Source: Bacteroidota bacterium (GTDB lineage: Bacteria; Bacteroidota; Bacteroidia; Palsa-965). From it: a stretch of DNA of 64,000 bases. The stretch covers positions 50,336-114,335 of the forward strand of contig VBWE01000005.1 of the NCBI GenBank assembly GCA_006218065.1, given 5' to 3'. The stretch's first letter is position 1. Each line of letters opens with the position of its first letter. Below the pieces are notes generated by a model. The model did not search any database. It saw only the letters and a program-made list of their open reading frames with translations, and was not told where the DNA came from. The translations under genes were made by a program, and so were the position numbers. Shown piece after piece: positions 4,083 to 63,906 of the stretch.

Positions 4083-5069
4083 TCAGATATTGCCCATCAC
4101 GTCATCCGCCGGGATTCCCAATGCGCATTTGAAATGGTTTTCGGGACATTCCTTATGCCCGTGAAGGCCGCAGGGGCGGCAAGCCAGTTTTTCTTTCGTT
4201 TCGATGATCCGCGTATGTTCCGAAACGGCGCCGAACCCGTAGGCAGGAATGGTAGAGCAGAAAATTTCCGTAACCGGTGCATTCACCGCGCTGGCCATGT
4301 GCGCGGGAGCGGAATCATTTACGTAATTCATCGCCGCGTCTTTCATCAGCGCAGCTGATTGTAAAAGCGTGAGCTGTCCGCACAGGTTGAACGAGTCCTT
4401 CCGCCCGGCCGTTTTAATGATCTTATCACAGGCCTCCACATCAGCCGGGGCGCCGATCAGGTACACGCGGTATTTCGCAGGAATCATCCTGATGAGTTCT
4501 ACCCATTTCTCCGCCGGCCATTGCTTGGTGAACCAGACCGAAGTGGGCGCCATGCAAACGTAAGGGCCGTGACTTTTATGAAACGAGACTTTCTTTTCAT
4601 CATCGGCGCCCGGGTAAAGTTTCGGGCGCAGCGTTTCCGGACCGGCCAGGTGCGCGATCAGTTCCATGTTCCGCCTGATCTCGTGCTTGCCCGTTCCGAT
4701 CTCGTGCCGGATTTTACGGTGGTAACAAAAAGAGAACGGGTTTTTATCAAAACCCACTTTTTCTTTTGCGCCCGAACGCCATACCAGGAAACCGGATGAG
4801 CCGAAACGGTGCAGGTTTATAACGAGGTCGTATCGTTCTTTCCGGATTCTTCGCGAAAGCGCGAACAGGTTACGAAGTTTCCCGCTTTTCTTATCGAAGA
4901 TGAGCGTATGCCGCAGGAACGGATGGCCGGTGAGCAATCCTTCGTTTCCTTTCCGCAAAAGAAAATCGATCGCCGCTTCGGGATACGTATCATGCAGTTT
5001 CTCCAGCAGCGGCGTCGCAAGTACGACATCGCCGGTAAATGCGGTCTGGATGATGAGTATTTTCTGCAA
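4083..5069 (-). CDS. Glycosyltransferase family 9 (heptosyltransferase-like)
   Basis: The ORF track gives 4083..5147. ILIIQTAFTGDVVLATPLLEKL is the usual GT9 N-terminus. An in-frame TTG at 5069 gives (M)QKILIIQ and removes the overlap with the upstream gene that ends at 5122. Confidence 0.8.
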   Translation of the reverse strand: MQKILIIQTAFTGDVVLATPLLEKLHDTYPEAAIDFLLRKGNEGLLTGHPFLRHTLIFDKKSGKLRNLFALSRRIRKERYDLVINLHRFGSSGFLVWRSGAKEKVGFDKNPFSFCYHRKIRHEIGTGKHEIRRNMELIAHLAGPETLRPKLYPGADDEKKVSFHKSHGPYVCMAPTSVWFTKQWPAEKWVELIRMIPAKYRVYLIGAPADVEACDKIIKTAGRKDSFNLCGQLTLLQSAALMKDAAMNYVNDSAPAHMASAVNAPVTEIFCSTIPAYGFGAVSEHTRIIETKEKLACRPCGLHGHKECPENHFKCALGIPADDVMGNI

Positions 5070-53269: not shown

Positions 53270-54679
53270 ATGAAAAAAATTTATCTTACACTCGTTCTTC
53301 TCCCTTTCATTTTTTCTGCTTCGGCGCAGAATTACAACTCACAAAACGTTAGTCTGCTCGGTCATTTCAATGATCCGACGGTTCCGGCGGAGCCTTTTTA
53401 CGGCATCCGTTACCAGGGCGTCTGGGGCTGGAAGGACACGGGCAACGGGAATGAATACGCCCTGATCGGTGCATCCACAGGTGTGTATTTTATCAACGTA
53501 ACCAACCCGGGAACGCCTGTCCAGTGCGATTTTCTTCCCGGCTGCCGCGTGGATTGCATCTGGCGTGAAATCAAAACCTACGATCATTACGCGTATATCG
53601 TGAGCGACGACGGTTCGCCGAACTGCTTCCAGATCGTTGACCTGAACTACCTTCCGGATTCCGTTCACGTAGTACACCAGGGCACGAATATTTTCGAACG
53701 CAGCCATACCATTTACGTGGACGGCAGCAAACTTTACTGCGGCAGTGTAACCACCACAAGCGACTATTACTCGATGGCGGTGTACGAACTTTCCGTCACT
53801 CCCGAAAACCCGCAACTGATTCGCACGCTCGACCAGGATTTTGTAACGCCGTCGACCGTGCACGATATGTTCGTGCGCAACGATACAGTGTATGCTTCGG
53901 GCGGGTACGATGGTCTGCACATCTTCAAATTCAACGGGGCTGCACCGTTCACGCAATTAGCCACGATGACCAATTACCAGGAACAGGGTTACAACCACAG
54001 CAGCTACCTGACGCCCGACGGGAATACGCTCATTTTTATGGACGAAGTTCCGGCTGGCATGGGCGTAAAGTCGCTCGACGTAAGTAATTTCGGCAACCTG
54101 ACGATGAACCAGATTTTCCGGTCCACTACAGGATGCACGCCGCACAACCCGTATATCCTCGGTGCAAATACATTGATTGCAGCCTATTACCAGGACGGCG
54201 TGCAGATTTTTGACATTTCGAATCCTTCGGCCGTAGTCCGTACCGGTTATTTCGATACCGATACGCTCAACAACGCGAGTAACGGTTACCCCGATCCGTA
54301 TCACGGTTGCTGGGGCGCTTACCAGGACCTGCCGAGCGGCAATATCCTCGCTTCCGATATGCAGAACGGCCTGTACATTCTCAACATCACGCAGTCCATG
54401 AGCGTACCGGCCGCGCAATCAGCCGTGAGCAGCGTTTCGGCTTACCCGAACCCGTTCAACGAAAACTTCATGGTGAACATCAGCCTGGAGAAAGCGCAGG
54501 AAATCACGTATCGCATTTACGACAATGCCGGCCGCCTGGTGTTTGAAGAAATGCAGAACCTTCCTGCGGGAAATTCGCTGCTCGACGTGACGGCGGATAA
54601 CCTGGCTGTCGGTTGTTATTCCATGACTATTTCCGGGGAGAATTTTAAAGGGAATGTGAAATTGGCGAAGGTGAAGTGA
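53270..54679 (+). CDS. Choice-of-anchor-B / LVIVD-repeat-like beta-propeller protein with a T9SS C-terminal sorting domain
   Basis: 469 aa with a signal peptide. NVSLLGHF...GVWGWKDTGNGNEYALIG is typical of choice-of-anchor B. The CTD is AYPNPFNENFMVNI...GNVKLAKVK. Confidence 0.7.
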   Translation: MKKIYLTLVLLPFIFSASAQNYNSQNVSLLGHFNDPTVPAEPFYGIRYQGVWGWKDTGNGNEYALIGASTGVYFINVTNPGTPVQCDFLPGCRVDCIWREIKTYDHYAYIVSDDGSPNCFQIVDLNYLPDSVHVVHQGTNIFERSHTIYVDGSKLYCGSVTTTSDYYSMAVYELSVTPENPQLIRTLDQDFVTPSTVHDMFVRNDTVYASGGYDGLHIFKFNGAAPFTQLATMTNYQEQGYNHSSYLTPDGNTLIFMDEVPAGMGVKSLDVSNFGNLTMNQIFRSTTGCTPHNPYILGANTLIAAYYQDGVQIFDISNPSAVVRTGYFDTDTLNNASNGYPDPYHGCWGAYQDLPSGNILASDMQNGLYILNITQSMSVPAAQSAVSSVSAYPNPFNENFMVNISLEKAQEITYRIYDNAGRLVFEEMQNLPAGNSLLDVTADNLAVGCYSMTISGENFKGNVKLAKVK

Positions 54680-54733
54680 TTTTGATGAACCGATTCAGTC
54701 AATTTGAAAATTGAGAAAATTATCTTCTTTATT

Positions 54734-54768
54734 AAATCCCGGTTTCTAAAGAACCGGGATTTTCATTT
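54734..54768 (+). terminator. Rho-independent terminator
   Basis: Stem aaatcccggtt/aaccgggattt followed by tcatttc. Confidence 0.7.
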
Positions 54769-54906
54769 CGTCTCTGCGATCGCAACTTTTTTAAGAATTA
54801 TTTTTCAAAAACGTTTGTGCTGCACTTGTTCGCAATGACCTGCTTGTGTGTTTACACCGCTTCAATTAGTGCAATCTAAATAAACCCGGGATTTTTTTCT
54901 GTTCGC

Positions 54907-54936
54907 TTGACAAGCCCCCCTCCTCGTTCGTATATT
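54907..54936 (+). promoter_or_regulatory. Enterobacterial-consensus-like promoter TTGACA-N18-TATATT
   Basis: TTGACA at 54907-54912 and TATATT at 54931-54936, 55 nt upstream of the radical SAM gene start. Confidence 0.35.
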
Positions 54937-54991
54937 AGCCCATCTTATCTTTTTTGCTGTATATATTTTTTGATTTTAGTTTTTAGAGACC

Positions 54992-56062
54992 ATGTCCGAA
55001 GAAAAACCCAACGACTACTTCAAGGGTAGAGGTGCGCAAATCAATACGCACAACCGTTTCCTGAAACAGCGCGTAGTACAGGAGCATATCGAGATGATCG
55101 ACGAACCATTCCTGCAGGAAGAGAAAACCGAGCTCATCGAAACGCACGCCAAAACGATCATCAACCGGATCGACAGTCCCGACATCCAGGGCTTGTCCAT
55201 GAACCCGTACCAGGGCTGCGAGCACGGCTGCATTTACTGCTACGCACGTAATGCCCATGAATACTGGGGTTACAGCGCCGGGCTGGATTTCGAGCGCAAG
55301 ATCATCATCAAGCGGAATGCGCCCGAACTGCTGGAAAAAGCGCTGAGCAACCCGCGCCACGAACCGGAGCCGATCATGTTTTCGGGCAATACGGATTGCT
55401 ACCAGCCGGTGGAACGCAAACTGGAAATCACACGGAAAATGCTGCAGGTACTCCTGAAGTTCCGCCATCCTGCGTCGATGATCACCAAGAACAGTCTCAT
55501 CCTCCGCGATATCGACATCCTGCAGGAAATGGCGAAACACCGGCTGGTACACGTGATGGTGAGCATCACCGGGCTCGATGAAAACATGCGCCAGAAACTA
55601 GAACCGCGCACCTCCACATACAAAAACCGGCTGAACACCGTCCGCGAACTGAACAAGGCCGGCATTCCCGTGGGCGTGATGGTTGCGCCGATCATCCCGG
55701 GACTGAACAGTCACGAAGTAGCAGACGTGATCGAAGCGGCGGCCGAAGCCGGGGCGCAGGAAGCGGGTTTTACCATCGTGCGGCTGAATGGTGCGATCGG
55801 TGATATTTTCAAAGACTGGCTTTTCAAAAATTTCCCCGACCGCGCGTCGAAAGTCTGGAACCAGATATGCGACTGCCACGGCGGGCAGGTGAACGACAGC
55901 CGCTGGGGAACACGCATGCGCGGGGAAGGCAATATCGCCGCGTCCATCAAACAACTGTTCCGCGTGGCTGTTCAGAAGCACCGGCTCAACCGCAGCGAGT
56001 TTATTTTCAACGTGGACGATTTTAATCCGAACGCCGGGAAAGCGCAACTGAGTTTGTTCTGA
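54992..56062 (+). CDS. PA0069-family radical SAM protein
   Basis: 356 aa with the family-typical N-terminus KGRGAQINTHNRF and the CxxxCxxC cluster CEHGCIYCY. Confidence 0.88.
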   Translation: MSEEKPNDYFKGRGAQINTHNRFLKQRVVQEHIEMIDEPFLQEEKTELIETHAKTIINRIDSPDIQGLSMNPYQGCEHGCIYCYARNAHEYWGYSAGLDFERKIIIKRNAPELLEKALSNPRHEPEPIMFSGNTDCYQPVERKLEITRKMLQVLLKFRHPASMITKNSLILRDIDILQEMAKHRLVHVMVSITGLDENMRQKLEPRTSTYKNRLNTVRELNKAGIPVGVMVAPIIPGLNSHEVADVIEAAAEAGAQEAGFTIVRLNGAIGDIFKDWLFKNFPDRASKVWNQICDCHGGQVNDSRWGTRMRGEGNIAASIKQLFRVAVQKHRLNRSEFIFNVDDFNPNAGKAQLSLF

Positions 56063-56240
56063 TCGATGTTTTTTTCTCCGTTTAAGTTACTCTTTGTGAT
56101 TCTTTGTGGCTTCGTGCCTTCGTGGCAGGAAACAAACAGGACTACAAAGGCGCCCCAAATTGATTCAAACACGGGTACCGGCTGACAGACTTGACTTGCA
56201 TCAGATTTTAGTTTATTTTTAGTTTTCCATTTCAGCCCCG

Positions 56241-56711
56241 ATGCGTAAACGGATTGTTTCTTTCCTGCTTATTTCGGTCACCACCTTCGGTTTCGTTTCC
56301 TGCCATAAGGACGAACTTCCGGCGGAACCTTCCGAGTATTTTGTAGAGGGTACCTGGGAAGTCGTAGAAATCTGGTCGAGCGACGGTTACCTTTTAAACA
56401 GCAGTTACGGCATAGGTCTCGGCGATATTTTCAAATTCACACACGACCGCAAGCTGACCTTTGATGTTACGGCACTAAGCGGAATCCAGGCGGATGGCAA
56501 CTGGGATTTATCGACGTACACATCCACTGATCCGAACGACACACTTTTTTATAATATGAGTGTGCTCGAACTGACCGGCAATATGAATTACATCTCGAGC
56601 AACTATTCGAGAAGCTTCGTTTGGAAAAACCTGCTCGAAGAATCCTACACTTCAGGGACCTGGCTCTCGTTTTACTGGAATAGCGAGCAATTTTACCTGA
56701 AGAAGCTCTGA
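56241..56711 (+). CDS. Hypothetical lipoprotein (lipocalin-like size)
   Basis: 156 aa with the lipoprotein signal FLLISVTTFGFVSC. Confidence 0.5.
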   Translation: MRKRIVSFLLISVTTFGFVSCHKDELPAEPSEYFVEGTWEVVEIWSSDGYLLNSSYGIGLGDIFKFTHDRKLTFDVTALSGIQADGNWDLSTYTSTDPNDTLFYNMSVLELTGNMNYISSNYSRSFVWKNLLEESYTSGTWLSFYWNSEQFYLKKL

Positions 56712-56773
56712 TCATCCGGGTGACTTGCGCGGATTTTCCTTCCAGAATCTTACTTTTATACAAAGCCAATTTC

Positions 56774-57286
56774 ATGGACCAGGTAAAATGGATCGAACGC
56801 AAATTCAGCTTCGACAGCAAAGAGAATATTTTTCCTTCCGTTGTTGATCGCCTGGAAGGAACCGTTATCCGCCTCAGGCACCGGCTCCAGTCGGTTGATG
56901 AAAAAACGCTCCGTCACCAGCCGGAAGGCCGCTGGTCCATCCTCGAGCATATCGGCCACCTCGCCGACCTGGAAACCCTCTGGCAAACACGCCTGGAAGA
57001 AATACTGGAAGGAAAAGAAACCATGTCAGCCGCCGACATGACCAACGCCAAAACCCACGCCGCCCGGCACAACGAAAAAGAAGTCCACTGGCTGATCCGC
57101 GAATTCGAAGACCTGCGGAACGAAACCCTGCAAAGCCTGCACGAATTAAAAGAAGAAGACGTTTTCCGCTCCGCTTTCCATCCGCGCCTGCAGAAACCGA
57201 TGCGCATCATCGACCTGTTCCTTTTCGTCGCGGAACATGACGATCATCACTTGGTTTCTATTAAGGAAATAGCCAAAACTGTCTAA
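56774..57286 (+). CDS. DinB-family protein
   Basis: The ATG at 56774 gives MDQVKWIERKF. WSILEHIGHLADLE and VAEHDDHH are the DinB-type His triad regions. Confidence 0.8.
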   Translation: MDQVKWIERKFSFDSKENIFPSVVDRLEGTVIRLRHRLQSVDEKTLRHQPEGRWSILEHIGHLADLETLWQTRLEEILEGKETMSAADMTNAKTHAARHNEKEVHWLIREFEDLRNETLQSLHELKEEDVFRSAFHPRLQKPMRIIDLFLFVAEHDDHHLVSIKEIAKTV

Positions 57287-57490: not shown

Positions 57491-59119
57491 TTATTTCCGC
57501 ATAATCATATCACGCTGGTACACATCCATTTTTACCGCGGCGGGTTTGATCGTATTCGAATTGTTGCTGATCGTGATGGAAACTTCGGCGGGTAATTTTC
57601 CATCGCTGAAATGAACATAGTACAACCCGTCGAACGCTTTTTCTTTGTGCGGGATTTTTGTAAAACCGCCCTGCGCAGAATACACGCTGTAAAGCCCCCA
57701 GTTTTCGCCGCCGCTTACTTTGTGCCGGTCAAGCGAATTCCAGTTCTCGCCTTTGGAAATGCACATTTGCGCCAGCCGCATAAGACTTACATTCAGCGAA
57801 AATTTTTCACCCGCCCTGATGTAAACGCATTTCGATGTGGAACCTGCGCTGATAAAAAGTACGGCATCGTACTTCGATTTGTTCGTAACGCGGAACACCG
57901 TCCCCGAATCAACCCAGGCATCTCCGCCGGAATACTGCAGTCGGTAGGGATCGTCGCCGGTTTCTGGTCTTCCGTACTCTGCGGAAGAACTGTCATTTTC
58001 GCCGGTACTGAGCCTGACCACGTCAAAAAGAGCTGTGGCTGTCGGCTTCGCCATTTCAAACTGCTTGAAATTTTCCCGCTGTTTCGACCATTGCTGCGCC
58101 TGGCGCATGATCTCATCAAGCCGTTTCTGCTGGTCGGTATTCCAGCCTCTGCCGAATCGCGACGATCCGCCCGAGCCGCTTTTATCCGTGGATCTCATGA
58201 TCATAACAATGACGGCTATCAAGCCGACGGCAAGAACGATCCGCTGGTATATTTTCAGCCCATTGGATTTATACGGACGTTCATAACCGGGATCCGGCTC
58301 CGGTTTGCCCCGCTCCCCGGCTTTGGGGTTTTTATGCGCGAAAATCAGTTCATTCACCATCCAGCCCTGCATGCCGAAAAGCGGGCGGGCTTTCCGTGCA
58401 CATTCGACCAGCTTGTCGAGAACAACATCCGGTATGCGCCGGCGGAACATTAAATCGTAATAGCTGCAATATATTTTAGCGAGGTCTTTGACTTCGGAAA
58501 AAAACGCGACCCAGAATAAAATCGTTTTTTCATCGCTCAGCTTCCGCAGGAATTCACTCACCACCCCGGCATTGTCATAATGTTCCAGGTCGTCGTTCAG
58601 AGACTGCACAAGCAGTTTTTCTTTCTCCGAGGTATAGCGCAATTCTTCCTGCAGAATTTCGGCCGGGGCGTCAGCAGTCATTTCCGACAATCGATTCACC
58701 GCTTCTGTATCTTCGCTGTTCCAGCATTGCCGGAGCCGTTCACGATAGGCATCTACCAGCATCCGGGTGATTTCGGTTTTTTGCTTACCCGTAACCTGCC
58801 CGTAGTCAAGCTGGTCCCAGGCAATGCCCTCGCTGTTCCCGGTTTCCAGGAAAGCGGGCAAACCGTAAACGGAGTGAATCGCTTTATGCAGCAGCAGGCG
58901 GTCTTCCTGCGCACATTCGTCAAGCGCCTGGAGCAGGTCGTTTTTGGTACGGCTGATCCCGTTCACCTCCACGGATGCGCCGCCGTTCAGTTCCAGTTCC
59001 GCCAGCCAGCGCTTTTTAGCCTCACGCAAAAGCACGGCAAACTCCGCGGGATCATCCGGGAGATCGGTTCGGAAAAGCAGGGTGCTCAGGGCTATATAGG
59101 GCACCATCAAAGTTACCAT
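57491..59119 (-). CDS. Single-pass membrane protein, paralogue 2 (cytoplasmic ~290-aa domain, TM helix, ~230-aa beta-rich ectodomain)
   Basis: 542 aa. The N-terminal domain is alignable to the upstream 371-aa protein (VPYIALSTLLFRTDLPDDPAEF..AKKRWLAELEL..GISRTKNDLLQALDEC). The TM segment is IVLAVGLIAVIVMIM. No HPD/J-domain motif. Confidence 0.7.
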   Translation of the reverse strand: MVTLMVPYIALSTLLFRTDLPDDPAEFAVLLREAKKRWLAELELNGGASVEVNGISRTKNDLLQALDECAQEDRLLLHKAIHSVYGLPAFLETGNSEGIAWDQLDYGQVTGKQKTEITRMLVDAYRERLRQCWNSEDTEAVNRLSEMTADAPAEILQEELRYTSEKEKLLVQSLNDDLEHYDNAGVVSEFLRKLSDEKTILFWVAFFSEVKDLAKIYCSYYDLMFRRRIPDVVLDKLVECARKARPLFGMQGWMVNELIFAHKNPKAGERGKPEPDPGYERPYKSNGLKIYQRIVLAVGLIAVIVMIMRSTDKSGSGGSSRFGRGWNTDQQKRLDEIMRQAQQWSKQRENFKQFEMAKPTATALFDVVRLSTGENDSSSAEYGRPETGDDPYRLQYSGGDAWVDSGTVFRVTNKSKYDAVLFISAGSTSKCVYIRAGEKFSLNVSLMRLAQMCISKGENWNSLDRHKVSGGENWGLYSVYSAQGGFTKIPHKEKAFDGLYYVHFSDGKLPAEVSITISNNSNTIKPAAVKMDVYQRDMIMRK

Positions 59120-60167
59120 TTTGCCCGAAGTCCGCTAAAGTGAAAAACTGCGGATAACAGGTATTTGCCGAAAAGGAACGGGAACGCTTTCCCGGTTTGC
59201 GCGGCTTATCCCGTTTAATAAAGATGGAAGCAATGATGAGGCATCCGAAGATTATTAAAACTAAAATGGCCATTTTGAATCTCATCCCGTCCACATTGCC
59301 CGGGGAGGCATAATGCTGCGCCAGGTTCTTTCCAAGATCCGTTTGCATGGGAGCCGGAGACTGCCCGGCGAGCCCGAACCAATGCGCCCGGGCAAGTTCC
59401 CTGATCTTCCAGTCGTCGGAACCGGCAAGCGGCATCGCTTTTTTAGCATAGCGGATGAGTTCCCGCAATTGGGATCTTTTTGCGCCGCGCCTTTTCATCG
59501 CCTTGTAATACCGGCTGTATATTCTTACTATTTCCGTTACCTCGCCGAAAAAGGAATTCCAGTATATCAGCGCCTGCTCATTTTTCAGCAGGACCAGGTA
59601 CGAACGGACTTCTCCGGTCTCTTCAAAATGGAGCAAATCCTCTTCGAGCACCTCGATCAGAAACTTTTTCCTCGCTTTTCCGAATTCGATATTGGCCTGT
59701 ACGATCTCCTCCGGCGCTCCATCCGACATATTGCCGAGCTCTTCGGTTGCACGGATATCGAAATTATTCCAGCAGGCCCGCATCCGTTCGAGGAAAACTT
59801 CGGCCGTCATTTTCAGGATTTCCTTCTGCTGGACCCTGCTGATCCGTTCATCGTCGAGCTTTTCCCAACTGATCGTACGGATGGAACGGATCTCGAGAAA
59901 ATCTTCCAGCCCGGGAACAAGCGACACGGCCTCCCGAAACCGCAGGCGTTCATCGTCATGACATTCGTCGAGCGCCGCCAGGATATCGCTTTTCCGGAAA
60001 GAAATACCGTCGATAACCGTGCTCGTGCCATCGGCCAGTTCGAACTCGGCAGACCAGCGTTTGCGCGCGTCACGCACCATCTGCGCCCGCATGGCGGGAT
60101 CATCGGAAAGCGGTTTGCCGAAGAAAAGGGTTTTAAATGCAATGTAGGGCACTGACAAAAATAGCAC
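59052..60167 (-). CDS. Single-pass membrane protein, paralogue 1 (same cytoplasmic domain and TM helix, ectodomain missing)
   Basis: 371 aa with a GTG start. It has VPYIAFKTLFFGKPLSDDPAMR..ARKRWSAEFEL..GISFRKSDILAALDEC and the TM segment ILVLIIFGCLIIASIFI. Its 3' end overlaps the next gene by 68 nt. Confidence 0.65.
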   Translation of the reverse strand: MLFLSVPYIAFKTLFFGKPLSDDPAMRAQMVRDARKRWSAEFELADGTSTVIDGISFRKSDILAALDECHDDERLRFREAVSLVPGLEDFLEIRSIRTISWEKLDDERISRVQQKEILKMTAEVFLERMRACWNNFDIRATEELGNMSDGAPEEIVQANIEFGKARKKFLIEVLEEDLLHFEETGEVRSYLVLLKNEQALIYWNSFFGEVTEIVRIYSRYYKAMKRRGAKRSQLRELIRYAKKAMPLAGSDDWKIRELARAHWFGLAGQSPAPMQTDLGKNLAQHYASPGNVDGMRFKMAILVLIIFGCLIIASIFIKRDKPRKPGKRSRSFSANTCYPQFFTLADFGQNGNFDGALYSPEHPAFPNRSPG

Positions 60168-60174
60168 GTTTTCT

Positions 60175-60281
60175 GTTTACCGTTTTTCGTTCACCGTTTA
60201 CGGTTTACCGTTTTTTGGCATTTTATAAATCGCCGGCGGATAACTATCCCGGAATTGCGGAAGGAAAACGGTAAACGGTGT
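60175..60281. promoter_or_regulatory. Divergent control region with GTTTACCG-type direct and inverted repeats
   Basis: gtttaccgttttt (60175-60187), caccgtttacgg (60192-60203), gtttaccgtttttt (60203-60216) and the inverted copy aaaacggtaaacggtg (60266-60281). A TAACTTTG -7 box lies at 60296-60303. Confidence 0.5.
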
Positions 60282-60327
60282 TTCTATAAAAACAATAACT
60301 TTGGAGGTACCCCAACAGGGCATTATC

Positions 60328-60657
60328 ATGATCATTCATAACCAGGAGCAATTGCTCAAAATCGTGAACCAGGTATATGACCTGGAACGTAAAACCGCCG
60401 CGAAAGAAGAGTTCGCCGGCCTTCAGCGAAACATCGGCCGCATCCGGGATGCATTTTCCGAAATGGGCCTGCACTGGGCGAGTCCCGAAGGCGAGCCGTA
60501 CAACGATACCCGCACCGACTGCGAAGCCAGTATCGCGGGCGAATCGTCCGAAAACCTGTATATCAGTGAAGTATTAAAACCGATCGTCTGGATAAAAGAC
60601 GGCGGACTGCAATACATCATCCAGAAAGCCGTCGTCATTGCCGAATCCCAAACGTGA
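60328..60657 (+). CDS. Minimal GrpE-like nucleotide-exchange-factor candidate
   Basis: The ATG at 60328 gives 109 aa. A helical N-part is followed by a C-terminal segment SPEGEPYNDTRTDCEASIAGESSENLYISEVLKPIVWIKDGGLQYIIQKAVVIA, which resembles the GrpE beta-domain pattern (G..FDP..H.A......V..V...GY.....++.A.V.V). Its stop lies 8 nt before the Hsp70 start. Confidence 0.55.
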   Translation: MIIHNQEQLLKIVNQVYDLERKTAAKEEFAGLQRNIGRIRDAFSEMGLHWASPEGEPYNDTRTDCEASIAGESSENLYISEVLKPIVWIKDGGLQYIIQKAVVIAESQT

Positions 60658-60664
60658 ACACAGT

Positions 60665-63187
60665 ATGAGCAATACCATCAATTACGGCATCGACCTCGGG
60701 ACCACCAATTCGGTGATCGCCCGGTACAACGCCGGCAAAGTAGAGATCTATAAAAACCCGGTCGGCCATAAAGAAACCCTGCCGTCGGTGGTCGCTTTCC
60801 GCAAGGAACGTATCATCGTGGGTGATAAGGCGCGCGAGTATCTTGAAAAAGATCCCGAAAACGTGGCCGGTTCCTTCAAACGAAAAATGGGAACTACCGA
60901 AAGCTTTTTCTTCAAAAGTATCGGCGAGTTTAAAACGCCGCAGGAACTTTCGGCCATCGTGCTCAAAGAGCTGAAAAATTTCGTGTACACCGGCGAGAAA
61001 GTAAACGCGGCCGTCATCACCATCCCCGCATCATTCGATACCATCCAGTCGAACGCCACCAAGAAAGCGGGCTACGATGCCGGTTTCGAAGAAGTGCTTT
61101 TGCTGCAGGAACCGATCGCGGCGAGCCTTGCTTATGCCAATAAGGACGACCAGCAGGAAGACAGCGAAGGCCAGTGGCTCGTGTACGATCTCGGCGGCGG
61201 AACTTTCGACGTGGCGCTGGTGAAAATCGGCGACGGCGAAATGAAAGTGGTCGATCACCAGGGCGATAATTTCCTGGGCGGACTCGATTTCGACAACCGC
61301 ATCATCGACAAGATCATTATCCCACATCTCGAAAAAACAGGCCGTTTCGATAATCCCGGGCAGGAATTAAAAAGCGCCAAGGGAAAATACAACCGCCTGT
61401 ATTACCAGTTGCTCGCCAAAGCCGAAGAAGCGAAAGTGCTTCTTTCTGCGAAAGACAGTATCGAAATCGAGTTCGAAATCGAAGACCGGAACGGCGAGTC
61501 CGTGGAAATGGTAATCGTTATTACAAAAACGGATTTCGAAAACAGCATCCGCGACCTGGTCACGTCCACCATCGACATGACGCGCCAGATCATCGAGCGG
61601 AACAACCTGGATGTTTCGAAACTCAACCACGTACTCATGATCGGCGGCAGTACGTACATGCCGATCGTGCGCAGGATGGTGGGCGAGGCCTTCGGCATTC
61701 CCGTCAATTGCAATATCGATCCTACTACGGCCGTCGCTGTGGGCGCTGCCTATTATGCCGGCACACGCACGCGCACGCGTTCGTCCATCAACCTGAAAAA
61801 GCACGACAACGCCCCGGGCGAAGCCGTTCCGGATAACCTGCAGCCCGCACCGGTGAAGATCCGCGTGGCTTACCAGAAAACGAGCCAGGACGCGCAGGAA
61901 TATTTCACCGCTGCCGTGGAAGGAAATTTCCAGGGATTGTTTTACCGCATTACGCGCGACGACGGCGGGTTCGACAGCGGGCTGAAAGCGCTTGCCGCAC
62001 GGATCAGCGAGATGCTCCAGCTCATACGCTCGACGGTGAACAATTTCACATTCCGCATTTACGATGCACAGAATAACCCGATGTCGTGCGACGTTCCGCC
62101 GATCAGCATCGTGCAGGGCAAATACAATGTGCTCGGGCAACCGCTTCCGAACGATATCTGCATCGAAGTGGACGATTACGAAAACAATACCACGCGGCTG
62201 GAAGTGATCTTTGAAAAAAATTCCATCCTTCCGCTCAAGCGCACGATCACGAAGAACATCACCAAAACGCTGCGCAAGGGAAGTACGGACAGCGTAATGA
62301 TCAATATCGTGGAAGGCCAGCACACGGCACACCCGAGCACCAACCCGTCCATCGGCTGCATCCAGGTAGTGGGCAAAGACCTGAACCGCGACCTGCTGAA
62401 AGGAACGGATATCGAAATCACGCTCGAGATGTCGGAATCGCGCGACCTGCGCATCAGCACCTACCTGCTGATGACCGACCAGGAATTCACCAACCTGTTC
62501 AGCCCGTCGGAACGGCAGGTGAACATCGACAAACTGCGCGACGAAATTCACGACATGATGAAACGGATCGCTGCGGATACGAAAGATGCCGAACGGAGAG
62601 AAGATTACGAACTCGCGCAGAAACTCACCATGCTCGGTCACGAGTTCGAAGACCTGGCCGCGGAAATAAACGCACTCAGTACCGACGATATCACCGATCG
62701 AAAATACCAGCTGGAAGACCGGAAACGGAAACTGGCGCAGCGTGTCGACGCACTTACGCGCGACAAGCATATCACGGAAGCGATGCAGGAATATTTCGAG
62801 TACAAGGAATGGTGCAAAGACCTGATCGACGCGCACGGAAACCCCGACGAGAAAAAACGTTACGAAGAACTGGTCGCGCGCGAAAAGCAGGTGATGTCGG
62901 CCAATAGCGTGATCCGCGTACGCGATGCGGTGAAAGATTACAGCAGGCTCGGCGGTCCCATCCAGTGGCGCATCCCGGAAAAATTAGTCGGCATTTTTTA
63001 CTGGCTCGCTACTACCCGGAAAGATGAACTGCGCGACCAGACGAAAGCCGACCGGTATATTGAAATGGGCGACAAAGCCATCGAGCGCAAAAATTACGAA
63101 GAACTCCGCGTAGTGATCAACAACCTCGTGCAGTTGCTTCCCCCGGATAAACAGTTTATCGACATGAAGGGAACGGGAATAGGATAA
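60665..63187 (+). CDS. Atypical Hsp70-family ATPase (~840 aa) with an insert after the NBD and an extended helical C-terminus
   Basis: The ATG at 60665 gives MSNTINYGIDLGTTNS. Other motifs are VITIPASF, LQEPIAASLAY, VYDLGGGTFDV, MIGGSTYMP and DPTTAVAVGAAYYAG. An SBD-beta-like stretch (VMINIVEGQH...GTDIEITLEMSESRDLRIS) appears only after a ~130-aa insert. Confidence 0.85.
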   Translation: MSNTINYGIDLGTTNSVIARYNAGKVEIYKNPVGHKETLPSVVAFRKERIIVGDKAREYLEKDPENVAGSFKRKMGTTESFFFKSIGEFKTPQELSAIVLKELKNFVYTGEKVNAAVITIPASFDTIQSNATKKAGYDAGFEEVLLLQEPIAASLAYANKDDQQEDSEGQWLVYDLGGGTFDVALVKIGDGEMKVVDHQGDNFLGGLDFDNRIIDKIIIPHLEKTGRFDNPGQELKSAKGKYNRLYYQLLAKAEEAKVLLSAKDSIEIEFEIEDRNGESVEMVIVITKTDFENSIRDLVTSTIDMTRQIIERNNLDVSKLNHVLMIGGSTYMPIVRRMVGEAFGIPVNCNIDPTTAVAVGAAYYAGTRTRTRSSINLKKHDNAPGEAVPDNLQPAPVKIRVAYQKTSQDAQEYFTAAVEGNFQGLFYRITRDDGGFDSGLKALAARISEMLQLIRSTVNNFTFRIYDAQNNPMSCDVPPISIVQGKYNVLGQPLPNDICIEVDDYENNTTRLEVIFEKNSILPLKRTITKNITKTLRKGSTDSVMINIVEGQHTAHPSTNPSIGCIQVVGKDLNRDLLKGTDIEITLEMSESRDLRISTYLLMTDQEFTNLFSPSERQVNIDKLRDEIHDMMKRIAADTKDAERREDYELAQKLTMLGHEFEDLAAEINALSTDDITDRKYQLEDRKRKLAQRVDALTRDKHITEAMQEYFEYKEWCKDLIDAHGNPDEKKRYEELVAREKQVMSANSVIRVRDAVKDYSRLGGPIQWRIPEKLVGIFYWLATTRKDELRDQTKADRYIEMGDKAIERKNYEELRVVINNLVQLLPPDKQFIDMKGTGIG

Positions 63188-63441: not shown

Positions 63442-63906
63442 TTATTTACATGATGCGCTATCGGTGCTGGGGTTGATAGAATTTTGAAACTCTAAATCTC
63501 GTGTGTTCTTTTGGTAATTGAGTATAAGGTTGCCAACAACGACTATAAAAGTTAATATGGCTATTAGTTTTACTACAACCTCAATTATCTTACTTCTTTT
63601 CTCTGTTTTCAGAAGTTTAGAATATCCGCCCTTATGTTGAAATTTTATTCCTCTAAAGGTGACTTTTATTTGATAAGGGAAATCTCCCCGAAGTTTATGT
63701 TCTTTTTTTTCATAAAATGCATCCACGTATTGCCCTCGAACTAAATGTAAAACTATCGGCAAGTGTTCATTGTCATCTATGCCTTTACTTTTTAGATGTT
63801 CTTTAAATTTGATCGAATCTGGATATAGATAACTTCCTTCGTTTTTTTGTACGAGAAAAGTTAATGCAATGTCTAATTTATCTTCCGGGGTTAAACCTTT
63901 TTTCAT
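63442..63906 (-). CDS. Hypothetical small protein with a C-terminal TM helix (AT-rich gene)
   Basis: 154 aa with a soluble ~105-aa N-domain and then IIEVVVKLIAILTFIVVVGNLIL. Sample 60-nt lines hand-count to 25-30% GC, against ~57% in the neighbouring Hsp70 gene. Confidence 0.6.
   Translation of the reverse strand: MKKGLTPEDKLDIALTFLVQKNEGSYLYPDSIKFKEHLKSKGIDDNEHLPIVLHLVRGQYVDAFYEKKEHKLRGDFPYQIKVTFRGIKFQHKGGYSKLLKTEKRSKIIEVVVKLIAILTFIVVVGNLILNYQKNTRDLEFQNSINPSTDSASCK

Follow-up and report, generated by a model that had tools for sequence, protein, structure and literature searches.

Does an Hsp70 encoded beside a very small GrpE-like protein and two membrane paralogues form a chaperone system of its own, and what would act as its recruiter when none of these proteins has an evident J-domain? 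This question is raised by a locus in a stretch of 64,000 nucleotides from a Bacteroidota bacterium (hereafter, the window). The function that we infer for it, with a probability of roughly 0.6, is that of a dedicated Hsp70 system tethered to the membrane, in which a mini-GrpE serves as exchange factor and a non-J protein as recruiter. The Hsp70-like protein is referred to here as H, the small protein as S, and the family of the two membrane paralogues (parA and parB) as P. The features of the locus, with the evidence for each, are as follows.

57491-59119, minus strand: parA, long-form P-family membrane partner, 542 aa (ORF, paralogy to parB, P-family HMM, TM prediction)
59052-60167, minus strand: parB, short-form P-family paralogue, 371 aa (ORF, identity to the partner gene of related locus L001, AF2)
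60168-60327, no strand: divergent control region (sequence, repeats)
60328-60657, plus strand: S, minimal protein with a predicted GrpE fold, 109 aa (homologues, AF2, Foldseek)
60665-63187, plus strand: H, Hsp70-like ATPase, 840 aa (ORF; ATG start at 60665)
60665-61765, plus strand: H nucleotide-binding domain (NBD), residues 1-367 (Pfam HSP70, PDB, catalytic columns)
61766-62134, plus strand: H variable linker and family-specific insert domain, residues 368-490 (DnaK/HscC alignment)
62135-62500, plus strand: H region resembling, weakly, the substrate-binding SBD-beta, residues 491-612 (hhalign against the DnaK SBD)
62501-63187, plus strand: H charged helical C-terminal extension, residues 613-840, to the stop codon (composition, family alignment)

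The four ORFs (parA, parB, S and H) are genuine at these coordinates. The start codon of S is the ATG at 60328, and the start ATG of H is backed by the alignment of orthologues. The intergenic gap between them is 7 nt in the window; the sequence-only reading had the order of the genes and the 109-aa size right and the spacing, given as 8 nt, wrong. Its description of two tandem paralogous genes divergent from the Hsp70 pair holds, since parA and parB both lie on the minus strand, with S and H on the plus strand, and their alignment of about 330 aa shows 36% identity (E 1e-69). parB runs with its 3' end 53-68 nt into the 5' end of parA, and the family consensus MxYxSP places the probable start of parA at 59107 or 59104 and that of parB at about 60152. 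Between parB and S there are 160 bp (60168-60327), earlier described as a repeat-rich control region of 130-160 bp, which indeed carry 5 of the 24 ACCGTTT heptamers of the window (13.5 expected), as direct copies at 60179, 60193 and 60207 (plus strand), 14 nt apart, and inverted copies at 60266 and 60273 (minus strand). These heptamers were not conserved in the intergenic regions of related loci. About 25 nt 5' of the S start codon lies TAACTTTG (60296-60303), retained in L001, which resembles a Bacteroidota -7 promoter box and may be taken as a candidate for one because the published consensus is TAnnTTTG. The module as a whole is a conserved bacterial gene set without annotation in public databases, and we found no paper describing this Hsp70/mini-GrpE/P system.

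By its sequence, H is an Hsp70-family ATPase with fully conserved catalytic residues. Pfam HSP70 matches it at 2.3e-75, in the NBD only (profile positions 3-376 of 599), the PDB match is to the DnaK NBD (1e-57), and the canonical NBD motifs first read from the DNA (GIDLGTTNS, DLGGGTFDV and IGGSTYMP) are all present. The equivalents of DnaK D8, K70, E171, D194 and T199 are invariant in the family alignment. The residues R167, N170 and T173 of DnaK, which we take to be its J-domain contact surface, are replaced: the R167 equivalent is V, I or L in 106/120 family members, that of N170 is Q and that of T173 is I or V. A VLLLDV-like interdomain linker, found in DnaK at 389-394, was absent in 118/118 H-family members, and residues 368-490 of H, extra in the alignment with DnaK and HscC, take the place of the canonical DVLLLD linker. 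With boundaries chosen on the DnaK alignment, the extra segment between NBD and SBD-beta is ~123 aa long, made up of the variable linker and an insert of ~95 aa that is conserved family-wide; the insert of ~130 aa proposed from the sequence survives as an extra segment, with its length revised to about 95-125 aa. The assignment of residues 491-612 to an SBD-beta is weak, as hhalign of the H family against the E. coli DnaK SBD aligned 80 columns of the beta-sandwich core at 21% identity (E 0.0026, probability 11.6%), and the family profile matched none of the DnaK SBD sequences of the PDB significantly. The helical tail is as highly charged as had been noted (39% of the final 215 aa) and measures ~215-230 aa, not ~250 aa; no match to it was found in the PDB. 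The stop codon of H comes right after a conserved GTGIG motif, and GTGIG or (K/R)IGFG(L/I) forms the extreme C-terminus in most of 122 H-family members.

The P family (1,097 clusters at 50% identity, unannotated) comprises proteins with an N-terminal all-alpha domain and one TM helix, which either serves as a tail anchor or precedes a conserved outer domain. parA is matched by the family HMM (E 6e-46) and by nothing in Pfam, NCBIfam or PADLOC; after its N-terminal, presumably cytoplasmic, all-alpha domain come the TM helix (residues 290-308, 58196-58252) and the C-terminal outer domain (residues about 313-519, 57563-58183), which is common to 69/79 long-form members. parB, 40% identical to the divergent partner gene of L001, the closest related locus, shares the N-terminal domain; its TM helix spans residues 299-317 (59217-59273), and a basic tail of 54 aa follows in place of the outer domain. 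A single hydrophobic helix after about 290-300 aa in each paralogue agrees with the cytoplasmic domain of ~290 aa plus one TM helix proposed beforehand. In the tail-anchored forms, the K/R bias (2.57 vs 0.54; N > C in 23/28) favours an N-terminus on the cytoplasmic side, and the basic C-terminal tail of parB (8 K/R in 15 aa) runs counter to this family trend. The AF2 model of parB residues 1-300 (mean pLDDT 79, about 90 over residues 10-160) is all-alpha plus one beta-hairpin at 49-58, with no fold match by Foldseek in PDB and BFVD. Overall, the N-terminal domain of P had no significant relative by sequence or structure in Pfam, NCBIfam, PADLOC or Foldseek (PDB/BFVD).

The lack of an evident J-domain, inferred at the outset from four proteins without HPD, extends to the P-family members searched. 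No HPD, HPE or HPN occurs in any of the four module proteins, HPD is found in 0/147 P representatives, Pfam DnaJ matches 0/49 P members even at E<=10, and the P HMM has no match to DnaJ, DjlB or DjlC. No J-domain appeared among the 50 best Foldseek matches listed per search (PDB, BFVD), in which the query was the whole 300-aa P model, something that disfavours a local match to a 70-aa J-domain. At the site equivalent to HPD, the P family conserves [ED]-L-S-D. It is nevertheless possible, if on the unlikely side, that the N-terminal domain of P is a genuine, highly diverged J-domain that stimulates H in a J-like manner without HPD; Pam16, the HPD-less J-like protein associated with the mitochondrial Hsp70 motor, is a precedent at the membrane. 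Its parts would be helix I, helix II, a loop with a beta-hairpin insertion, and helices III and IV; the AF2 model has a short helix, a long helix, the hairpin and two further helices. The P consensus NPxE[LI]L...IKKAK[RK][KR]LLAE[IF]ELSD parallels, with equal spacing, the J pattern YYEILGV...EIKKAYRKLAxKYHPD, and hhalign recovers exactly this register, although with a probability of just 2.5%, which is not significant. The failure of Pfam DnaJ, of the P HMM and of the whole-model Foldseek searches to find any J-domain also speaks against it. Since ELSD replaces HPD, and H lacks the linker as well as the R167, N170 and T173 residues, the chemistry of the proposed H-P coupling would have to be non-canonical.

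The exchange factor of the dedicated system that we favour would be S. Its residues 6-45 form a helical hairpin and residues 48-107 a beta domain of six strands, and its 43 homologues in the clustered protein database, every one unnamed or "hypothetical," share the motif ETRTDCEASIAG, invariant throughout the family alignment. The AF2 model (pLDDT 91, pTM 0.80) retrieved GrpE structures as all of its 12 best Foldseek matches in the PDB (4ani, 9a81, 9bls, 9blt, 8gb3, 3a6m and 1dkg; probability 0.66-1.00, TM up to 0.62), and the matches beyond these were noise (probability < 0.1). Sequence profiles gave no significant link between S and GrpE by any method used: a Pfam search of the window protein found nothing, GrpE included, a weak GrpE match was obtained for 1/37 family members (E 0.029), and hhalign produced the expected register below significance (E 0.068), setting the invariant S motif opposite the FDPxxHxA motif of GrpE. 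The GrpE likeness first proposed for this 109-aa ORF was thus recovered in the predicted fold and not in the sequence profile. As modelled, S is a small GrpE-fold protein with hairpin and beta domain and without the long N-terminal helix; because this predicted fold is GrpE-like, it may be a nucleotide-exchange factor dedicated to H, and it would dimerise via a four-helix bundle in the GrpE fashion. It is distinctly unlikely, in our opinion, that S is no exchange factor and that the fold serves as an inhibitor, as a lid or substrate mimic, or as an adaptor bridging H and P. The missing N-terminal helix (109 aa vs about 200), the absence of a sequence counterpart of ETRTDCEASIAG in GrpE, and the specialised HscA and HscC, thought to be independent of such factors (PMC8215388), would fit this idea. 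However, the entire S superposes on the part of GrpE that contacts the DnaK NBD (four-helix-bundle hairpin plus beta domain), and its tight, near-universal pairing with H is that of an obligate co-factor.

This pairing, and the linkage of the module in general, was borne out by a survey of related loci. S lies 5' of H in 58/60 loci retrieved through H alone, with an inserted gene or IS66 element interrupting the pair in 6 of those 58, and directly adjoins H in 57/57 well-flanked loci. Most loci have a gap between -4 and about 30 nt, and a 4-nt overlap of S and H occurs in many relatives. A P-family gene was found at <=3.5 kb in 45/57 well-flanked loci, in four arrangements (upstream on the same strand, divergent, or downstream, the last convergent or, in two loci, co-directional); such variety points to selection for proximity and away from inherited synteny. 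The norm is a single P in a P>S>H operon, and a minority of loci have the divergent two-paralogue layout seen in the window. P is not obligatory, since none was detected within 3.5 kb in 12/57 well-flanked loci, and in about 7 loci without detectable P a YegS/DAGK-like lipid kinase gene adjoins S. A TerB-like gene follows H in 10/57 loci, with P present every time; the window itself has no TerB gene. S relatives are encoded in 237 of about 185,000 GTDB species genomes, and outlier hosts of the module (Methylococcales/Crenothrix, KSB1 and Calditrichaceae) suggest horizontal transfer.

That the module is instead an anti-phage or conflict system, in which NTP would drive H as a sensor or switch and the P proteins would sense or act at the membrane, on the model of the conflict systems with an Hsp70 known from comparative genomics, seems to us quite improbable: its patchy spread with outliers, its otherwise unrelated gene neighbourhoods (one locus sits inside an ATP synthase operon), the fast evolution and variable copy number of P (1 to 3 per locus), the TerB-like gene at some loci, and the precedents of GAP1-N2 GTPase conflict systems that include Hsp70 and GrpE (PMC7159879) and of CoCoNuTs with the Hsp70-like CnuD (PMC11090510) point that way, but PADLOC matched none of the four module proteins, no GTPase, tubulin, McrBC, nuclease, protease or other effector domain was found in or beside the module, the window neighbours are ordinary (a T9SS cargo protein, a radical SAM enzyme and a DinB-family protein), and a defence-island context was not seen at module loci, bar one DNA methylase in L012.

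The dedicated chaperone system shares with canonical DnaK-DnaJ-GrpE an Hsp70 ATPase with conserved catalytic residues and an upstream-encoded GrpE-fold partner. It differs in having neither a J-domain protein nor the DVLLLD linker, in the substituted R167, N170 and T173 positions, and in an S that is half-sized, with no long N-terminal helix and no significant sequence similarity to GrpE. The grpS-sglK pair of Myxococcus xanthus, a DnaK-like gene with a dedicated GrpE-like gene and a specialised function, recalls H and S; however, GrpS can be recognised as a GrpE homologue and SglK is close to a canonical DnaK, and the pair is not known to have a P-like membrane partner. In the PAM import motor (mtHsp70, Mge1/GrpE, Pam18, the HPD-less J-like Pam16 and Tim44), an Hsp70 is also held at the membrane by dedicated partners, one of them J-like without HPD, and served by a GrpE-type exchange factor. 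PAM is eukaryotic and organellar, though, Pam16 works with the HPD-bearing Pam18, which has no counterpart in the module, and the two systems are not known to be homologous. DjlA likewise ties a TerB-like domain (presumably CDD cd07316) to a membrane Hsp70 co-chaperone, as does the TerB-family gene after H at some loci, but there it is fused to a real J-domain in a protein that serves DnaK. HscC of E. coli, like H, is a specialised, non-essential Hsp70 paralogue beside tandem paralogous partners, DjlB and DjlC, which resemble P in their N-terminal Hsp70-interacting domain (a putative one in P), large helical cytoplasmic region and C-terminal membrane anchor (PMC8215388). Compared with E. coli DnaK, the NBDs of HscC and H share a deletion. 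In contrast, HscC has 556 aa, 26% identity to H, no insert domain and no long tail, keeps the R167-equivalent arginine and is thought to be GrpE-independent (PMC8215388), whereas H comes with a GrpE-fold gene; a J-domain is recognisable in DjlB and DjlC (HPE in K-12), and the P HMM shows no homology to them. A 2026 review describes the "DnaK derivates" of Myxococcota as largely unexplored "dark matter" (PMC13580251).

The sequence-only reading had named signalling beside chaperoning as a possible role of such a membrane-tethered system, and either may apply. In the working that we propose for it, the N-terminal domain of P would dock H on the inside of the cytoplasmic membrane, filling the recruiter or activator role that the membrane J-proteins DjlA, DjlB and DjlC have for DnaK and HscC, and S would speed nucleotide exchange on H as its obligate partner. 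The outer domain of long-form P proteins such as parA may couple a client or input on the envelope side to cytoplasmic remodelling powered by ATP, and parB would be a tail-anchored-like paralogue devoid of that domain. If this is true, the module would be a specialised chaperone machine that departs from the usual DnaK/DnaJ/GrpE rules.

The locus consists of two plus-strand genes, coding for a small GrpE-fold protein (S) and an Hsp70-like protein (H), and of two paralogous minus-strand genes divergent from them (parA and parB), which code for membrane proteins of a family that we call P.

57491-59119, minus strand: parA, ORF of 542 aa
59052-60167, minus strand: parB, ORF of 371 aa
60328-60657, plus strand: S, ORF of 109 aa, from the ATG at 60328
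From the ATG at 60665, plus strand: H, 840 aa, with a start that agrees with the N-termini of its orthologues

The sequence-only reading had described these four genes accurately, apart from the gap between S and H, which is 7 nt (one base off its figure), and a certain uncertainty in the start codons. ParA and ParB are 36% identical over ~330 residues (E 1e-69), each with a single strongly hydrophobic helix after ~290-300 residues, and their genes overlap by 53-68 nt (59052-59119), parB with its 3' end and parA with its 5' end. The upstream neighbors (53270-57286) code for a T9SS-sorted protein (Por_Secre_tail), a radical SAM enzyme, a DinB_2 family protein and a small protein with a hydrophobic N-terminus and no Pfam match, and look unrelated to the module formed by S, H and the P genes. 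Downstream (63442-63906, minus strand), there is a gene for a 154-aa protein with a C-terminal anchor and no family match, in a region of lower GC content (0.467). The divergent intergenic region spans 160 bp and contains five ACCGTTT heptamers, three direct with a 14-nt spacing and two inverted, in the part with the divergent promoters (60179-60279). Over the whole window, 24 such heptamers occur against 13.5 expected. These repeats are genuine in the window but were not found in the equivalent intergenic regions of L001 (the related locus closest to this one), L005 and other divergent loci, which speaks against a conserved operator, so that they may form a lineage-specific one. The same region carries TAACTTTG, ~25 nt before the start codon of S and similar to the consensus of the Bacteroidota -7 promoter box.

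H matched the Pfam HSP70 profile (PF00012, 2.3e-75) over residues 17-378 of the 849-aa ORF, a match confined to the nucleotide-binding domain (NBD; profile positions 3-376 of 599), and its best PDB sequence matches were DnaK NBDs (1e-57). When it was aligned with two orthologues and with DnaK and HscC of E. coli (29% and 26% identity, respectively), the catalytic and phosphate-binding columns D10, K72, E149, D175, G177-179, T180 and D182 were invariant and, therefore, ATP hydrolysis by H should be possible. Where the canonical hydrophobic linker would follow the NBD, there is instead a segment of variable sequence and then an insert of ~95-125 residues (depending on the choice of boundaries) that is conserved and specific to this family. 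Past this insert, hhalign aligned 80 columns with the beta-sandwich core of the DnaK substrate-binding domain (SBD) (21% identity, E 0.0026, probability 11.6%), and a search of PDB sequences with the H-family profile found no DnaK SBD; we consider this region SBD-beta-like with moderate confidence. The C-terminal 215-230 residues are helical (39% charged over the last 215) and gave no match in the family profile search of the PDB. Most of the 122 H-family members end in a conserved GTGIG or (K/R)IGFG(L/I) motif, found at 63170-63184 in the window and reminiscent of the EEVD docking motif of eukaryotic Hsp70s.

H also departs from canonical Hsp70s at sites where a J-protein would act. An interdomain linker of the VLLLDV type is missing in all 118 of the H-family members searched, with a pattern that does pick up 389-VLLLDV-394 in DnaK. 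Where DnaK has R167, 106 out of 120 members have V, I or L and only one has R, while the equivalent of N170 is always Q and that of T173 is I or V. According to DnaK-DnaJ genetics and the structure of the complex, R167, its neighbors and the linker are the target of the HPD loop of the J-domain, and H has lost them.

Nothing in Pfam, NCBIfam or PADLOC matched ParA or ParB, and a word-indexed homology search with ParB recovered only ParB. An HMM of the P family was built from the genes neighboring S in related loci, with ~60 members recovered beside S-H pairs, and an exhaustive profile search then gave 1,097 representatives (50% identity clusters, E<=0.001), with the P domain N-terminal in nearly all of the best 150 of these 1,097 matches. 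Most members have a cytoplasmic region of 220-450 aa and then one transmembrane (TM) helix, and are either tail-anchored or continue into a C-terminal domain of ~180-230 aa, replaced in a few of them by TPR or BatD domains. A profile built on the post-TM segments only indicated that this C-terminal domain is homologous to ParA 313-519 in 69 of the 79 long-form proteins. Tail-anchored forms have a mean of 2.57 K/R on the N-side of the TM helix versus 0.54 on the C-side, a bias that places the N-terminus of P in the cytoplasm. The ParB tail past the TM helix, unusually basic (8 K/R in 15 aa), is an exception to this trend. From this survey of architectures, it follows that ParA is a typical long form and ParB a truncated paralogue, perhaps one that is decaying or has been re-purposed.

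No J-domain had been evident in the sequence-only reading, and the broader search agrees: HPD, HPE and HPN are all absent from the four window proteins, none of the 147 P representatives has an HPD tripeptide (the site is a conserved [ED]-L-S-D), and a Pfam scan of 49 P members gave no DnaJ (PF00226) match. By a rival reading, the N-terminal domain of P would be a diverged, cryptic J-like domain. The P consensus, M-x-[FY]-I-N-P-x-E-[LI]-L ... I-K-K-A-K-[RK]-[KR]-L-L-A-E-I-E-L-S-D, closely resembles the helix I plus helix II pattern of J-domains, with ELS(D) at the position of HPD, and hhalign against a J-domain alignment (assembled partly by hand) matched it in that same register. Besides the missing Pfam match, what speaks against it is the probability of that alignment, 2.5%, and the fact that the P HMM did not match DnaJ, DjlB or DjlC of E. 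coli. It should be noted that the J-domains of DjlB and DjlC of E. coli K-12 (L085:1416-1715 and 4213-4512) read HPE rather than the canonical HPD. An AlphaFold2 model of ParB 1-300 (mean pLDDT 79, ~90 over residues 10-160) has a short helix, a long helix, a beta-hairpin and more helices; Foldseek searches of PDB and BFVD with the whole 300-aa model gave only generic helical repeats, with no J-domain among the top 50 matches listed per search. Canonical J coupling seems to have been lost on both sides, in P with its lack of HPD and in H with its lack of the linker and the R167 surface. This two-sided loss is the most informative new point, and it suggests that the system uses a different coupling chemistry rather than a J-protein encoded elsewhere.

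The protein database contains 43 homologues of S, of ~100-135 aa, all of them unnamed or "hypothetical" and all with an invariant ETRTDCEASIAG motif. The sequence-only reading had called this small ORF GrpE-like, a similarity that profile searches failed to recover or left below threshold. S had no Pfam or NCBIfam match to GrpE (PF01025), and nothing was found among PDB sequences by phmmer or by hmmsearch with the family profile; scanning 37 family members one by one against Pfam gave a single weak GrpE match (E 0.029), and hhalign against a three-sequence GrpE alignment was sub-threshold (E 0.068, probability 0.8%), albeit in the expected register, with GLxxxNPLGEPY facing GVExIxxxGxPFDP. What stood was the fold. 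The AlphaFold2 model of S (pLDDT 91, pTM 0.80) shows a hairpin of two helices (6-24 and 27-45) and a six-stranded beta domain, and its best 12 Foldseek matches in the PDB were all GrpE chains, from five organisms and mostly in Hsp70 complexes (probability 0.66-1.00, TM up to 0.62), with noise below them. Since these best 12 matches are GrpE chains only, S is predicted to correspond to the part of GrpE that forms the four-helix bundle and contacts the NBD. The model begins at the hairpin and, hence, the long N-terminal paired helix, the dimer stalk and thermosensor of GrpE, is missing; S has 109 aa versus 197 aa in E. coli GrpE. As for its activity, S could, though less probably, be something other than a nucleotide-exchange factor (NEF); what favors exchange on H is the linkage of the two genes.

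A scan with the S profile, in which each GTDB species was represented by a single genome, found relatives in 237 species genomes, mostly Bacteroidota (Chitinophagales, Cytophagales, Saprospiraceae and Sphingobacteriales), with a few carriers elsewhere (Calditrichaceae, KSB1 and Methylococcales/Crenothrix). Cultured Niastella, Chitinophaga, Fulvivirga and Pinibacter are among them. As an independent test, metagenome contigs were searched with a profile of the H C-terminus, providing 60 loci with a complete H and sufficient upstream sequence. S was directly upstream of H in 52 and separated from it by an insertion in 6 more (58/60). Two of these loci can be described individually. At L155 (2400-4790), an IS66-type element (a 121-aa accessory gene and a 507-aa transposase) lies between S and H, while L104 (3009-4817) has an additional 238-aa gene there and, also at L104, the outer domain of P is encoded separately as a 234-aa membrane protein. 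Pooling the loci in which H is flanked on each side by 3.5 kb or more gave 57; S adjoins H in all of these, and a P gene is found within 3.5 kb in 45, upstream on the same strand (24), downstream and convergent (15), upstream and divergent (4) or downstream and co-directional (2). Of these 45, 39 have a single P copy, 5 have two and 1 has three. The prevailing order is P>S>H, and the divergent arrangement with two paralogues seen in the window is a minority variant shared with L001.

Other genes accompany the module less often. A TerB-family gene (Pfam TerB 3e-5 at L002) follows H in 10/57 pooled loci, with P present every time, and in ~7 S-H loci with no detectable P, a gene for a YegS/DAGK-like lipid kinase (Pfam DAGK_cat plus YegS_C) is directly upstream of S (L004:7048-7962, L050, L068 and L081 among others). 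This kinase may be an alternative membrane-related partner. Beyond the module, the surroundings are unrelated housekeeping genes, and the module evidently moves as a unit. At the distantly related L002 (6384-11371), and also at L003, a complete P-S-H-TerB module is located within the F-type ATP synthase operon, between atpH (OSCP) and atpA, and this location could either reflect insertion by chance or point to the client. A metagenomic H homologue at L141 (4138-7317) has an N-terminal extension (971-aa ORF, frame open to ~1,060 aa). Upstream of it there are two divergent P-family genes, in one of which part of the P domain occurs as three repeats, but S was not detected there.

The closest analogue is HscC/DjlB/DjlC of E. 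coli, and the likeness is in architecture only: a specialized Hsp70 and tandem paralogous partners that have their interaction domain at the N-terminus and a TM anchor at the C-terminus. HscC-type proteins, however, have ~550-580 aa and no NEF, whereas H has 840 aa, its own GrpE-fold gene and 26% identity to HscC; likewise, DjlB and DjlC carry a J-domain, while P has no J-domain match and no detectable homology to either of them. A 2021 review recognized only DnaK, HscA and HscC as prokaryotic Hsp70 types (PMC8215388), and one from 2026 referred to other "DnaK derivates" as unexplored "dark matter," asking in which cases J-proteins and GrpE are still used (PMC13580251). A description of this module was not found in full-text literature searches. 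In RefSeq and UniProt, H is named "Hsp70 family protein," and the S and P entries that we looked up are "hypothetical" or uncharacterized. A conflict or defense system would suit the patchy distribution and mobility of the module, but this was rejected, as no effector domain was found and none of the four window proteins matched PADLOC-DB v2 at E<=1. The module is not among the Hsp70-containing conflict systems of PMC7159879 and PMC11090510 either.

The most economical reading is that the module is a dedicated Hsp70 system. H would be its ATPase, S the minimal GrpE-type exchange factor belonging to H, and the P proteins membrane anchors and recruiters, with their cytoplasmic N-terminal domain in the place of a J-protein; the outer domain of the long forms would provide envelope-side input or contact with the client. 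From the gene content, folds and linkage found here, we infer exchange activity, binding of P to H and tethering to the membrane. A bolder version, to which we would give only about three chances in ten, has the N-terminal domain of P as an Hsp70 co-chaperone of a new class, in the place of the J-domain, which would tether and activate an Hsp70 devoid of both the canonical linker and the HPD-binding surface. P, H and the mini-GrpE would together constitute a bacterial membrane-bound Hsp70 motor, a prokaryotic functional analogue of PAM or Sec63-BiP, which could remodel or extract membrane or envelope-spanning clients according to what the outer domain of P senses.

The module, whose functional roles we infer, is of solid interest to chaperone specialists, as a concrete and widespread case of an Hsp70 other than DnaK, HscA or HscC with a defined set of partners. 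H has kept the ATPase and dropped the J-coupling apparatus, S has a stripped-down GrpE fold invisible to sequence methods, and the module includes members of a membrane protein family that has no annotation and comprises ~1,100 clusters at 50% identity. How small a functional GrpE can be, and whether an Hsp70 cycle can be driven without a J-domain, would become testable questions. The partnerships, if confirmed, would provide a function for the S and P families.
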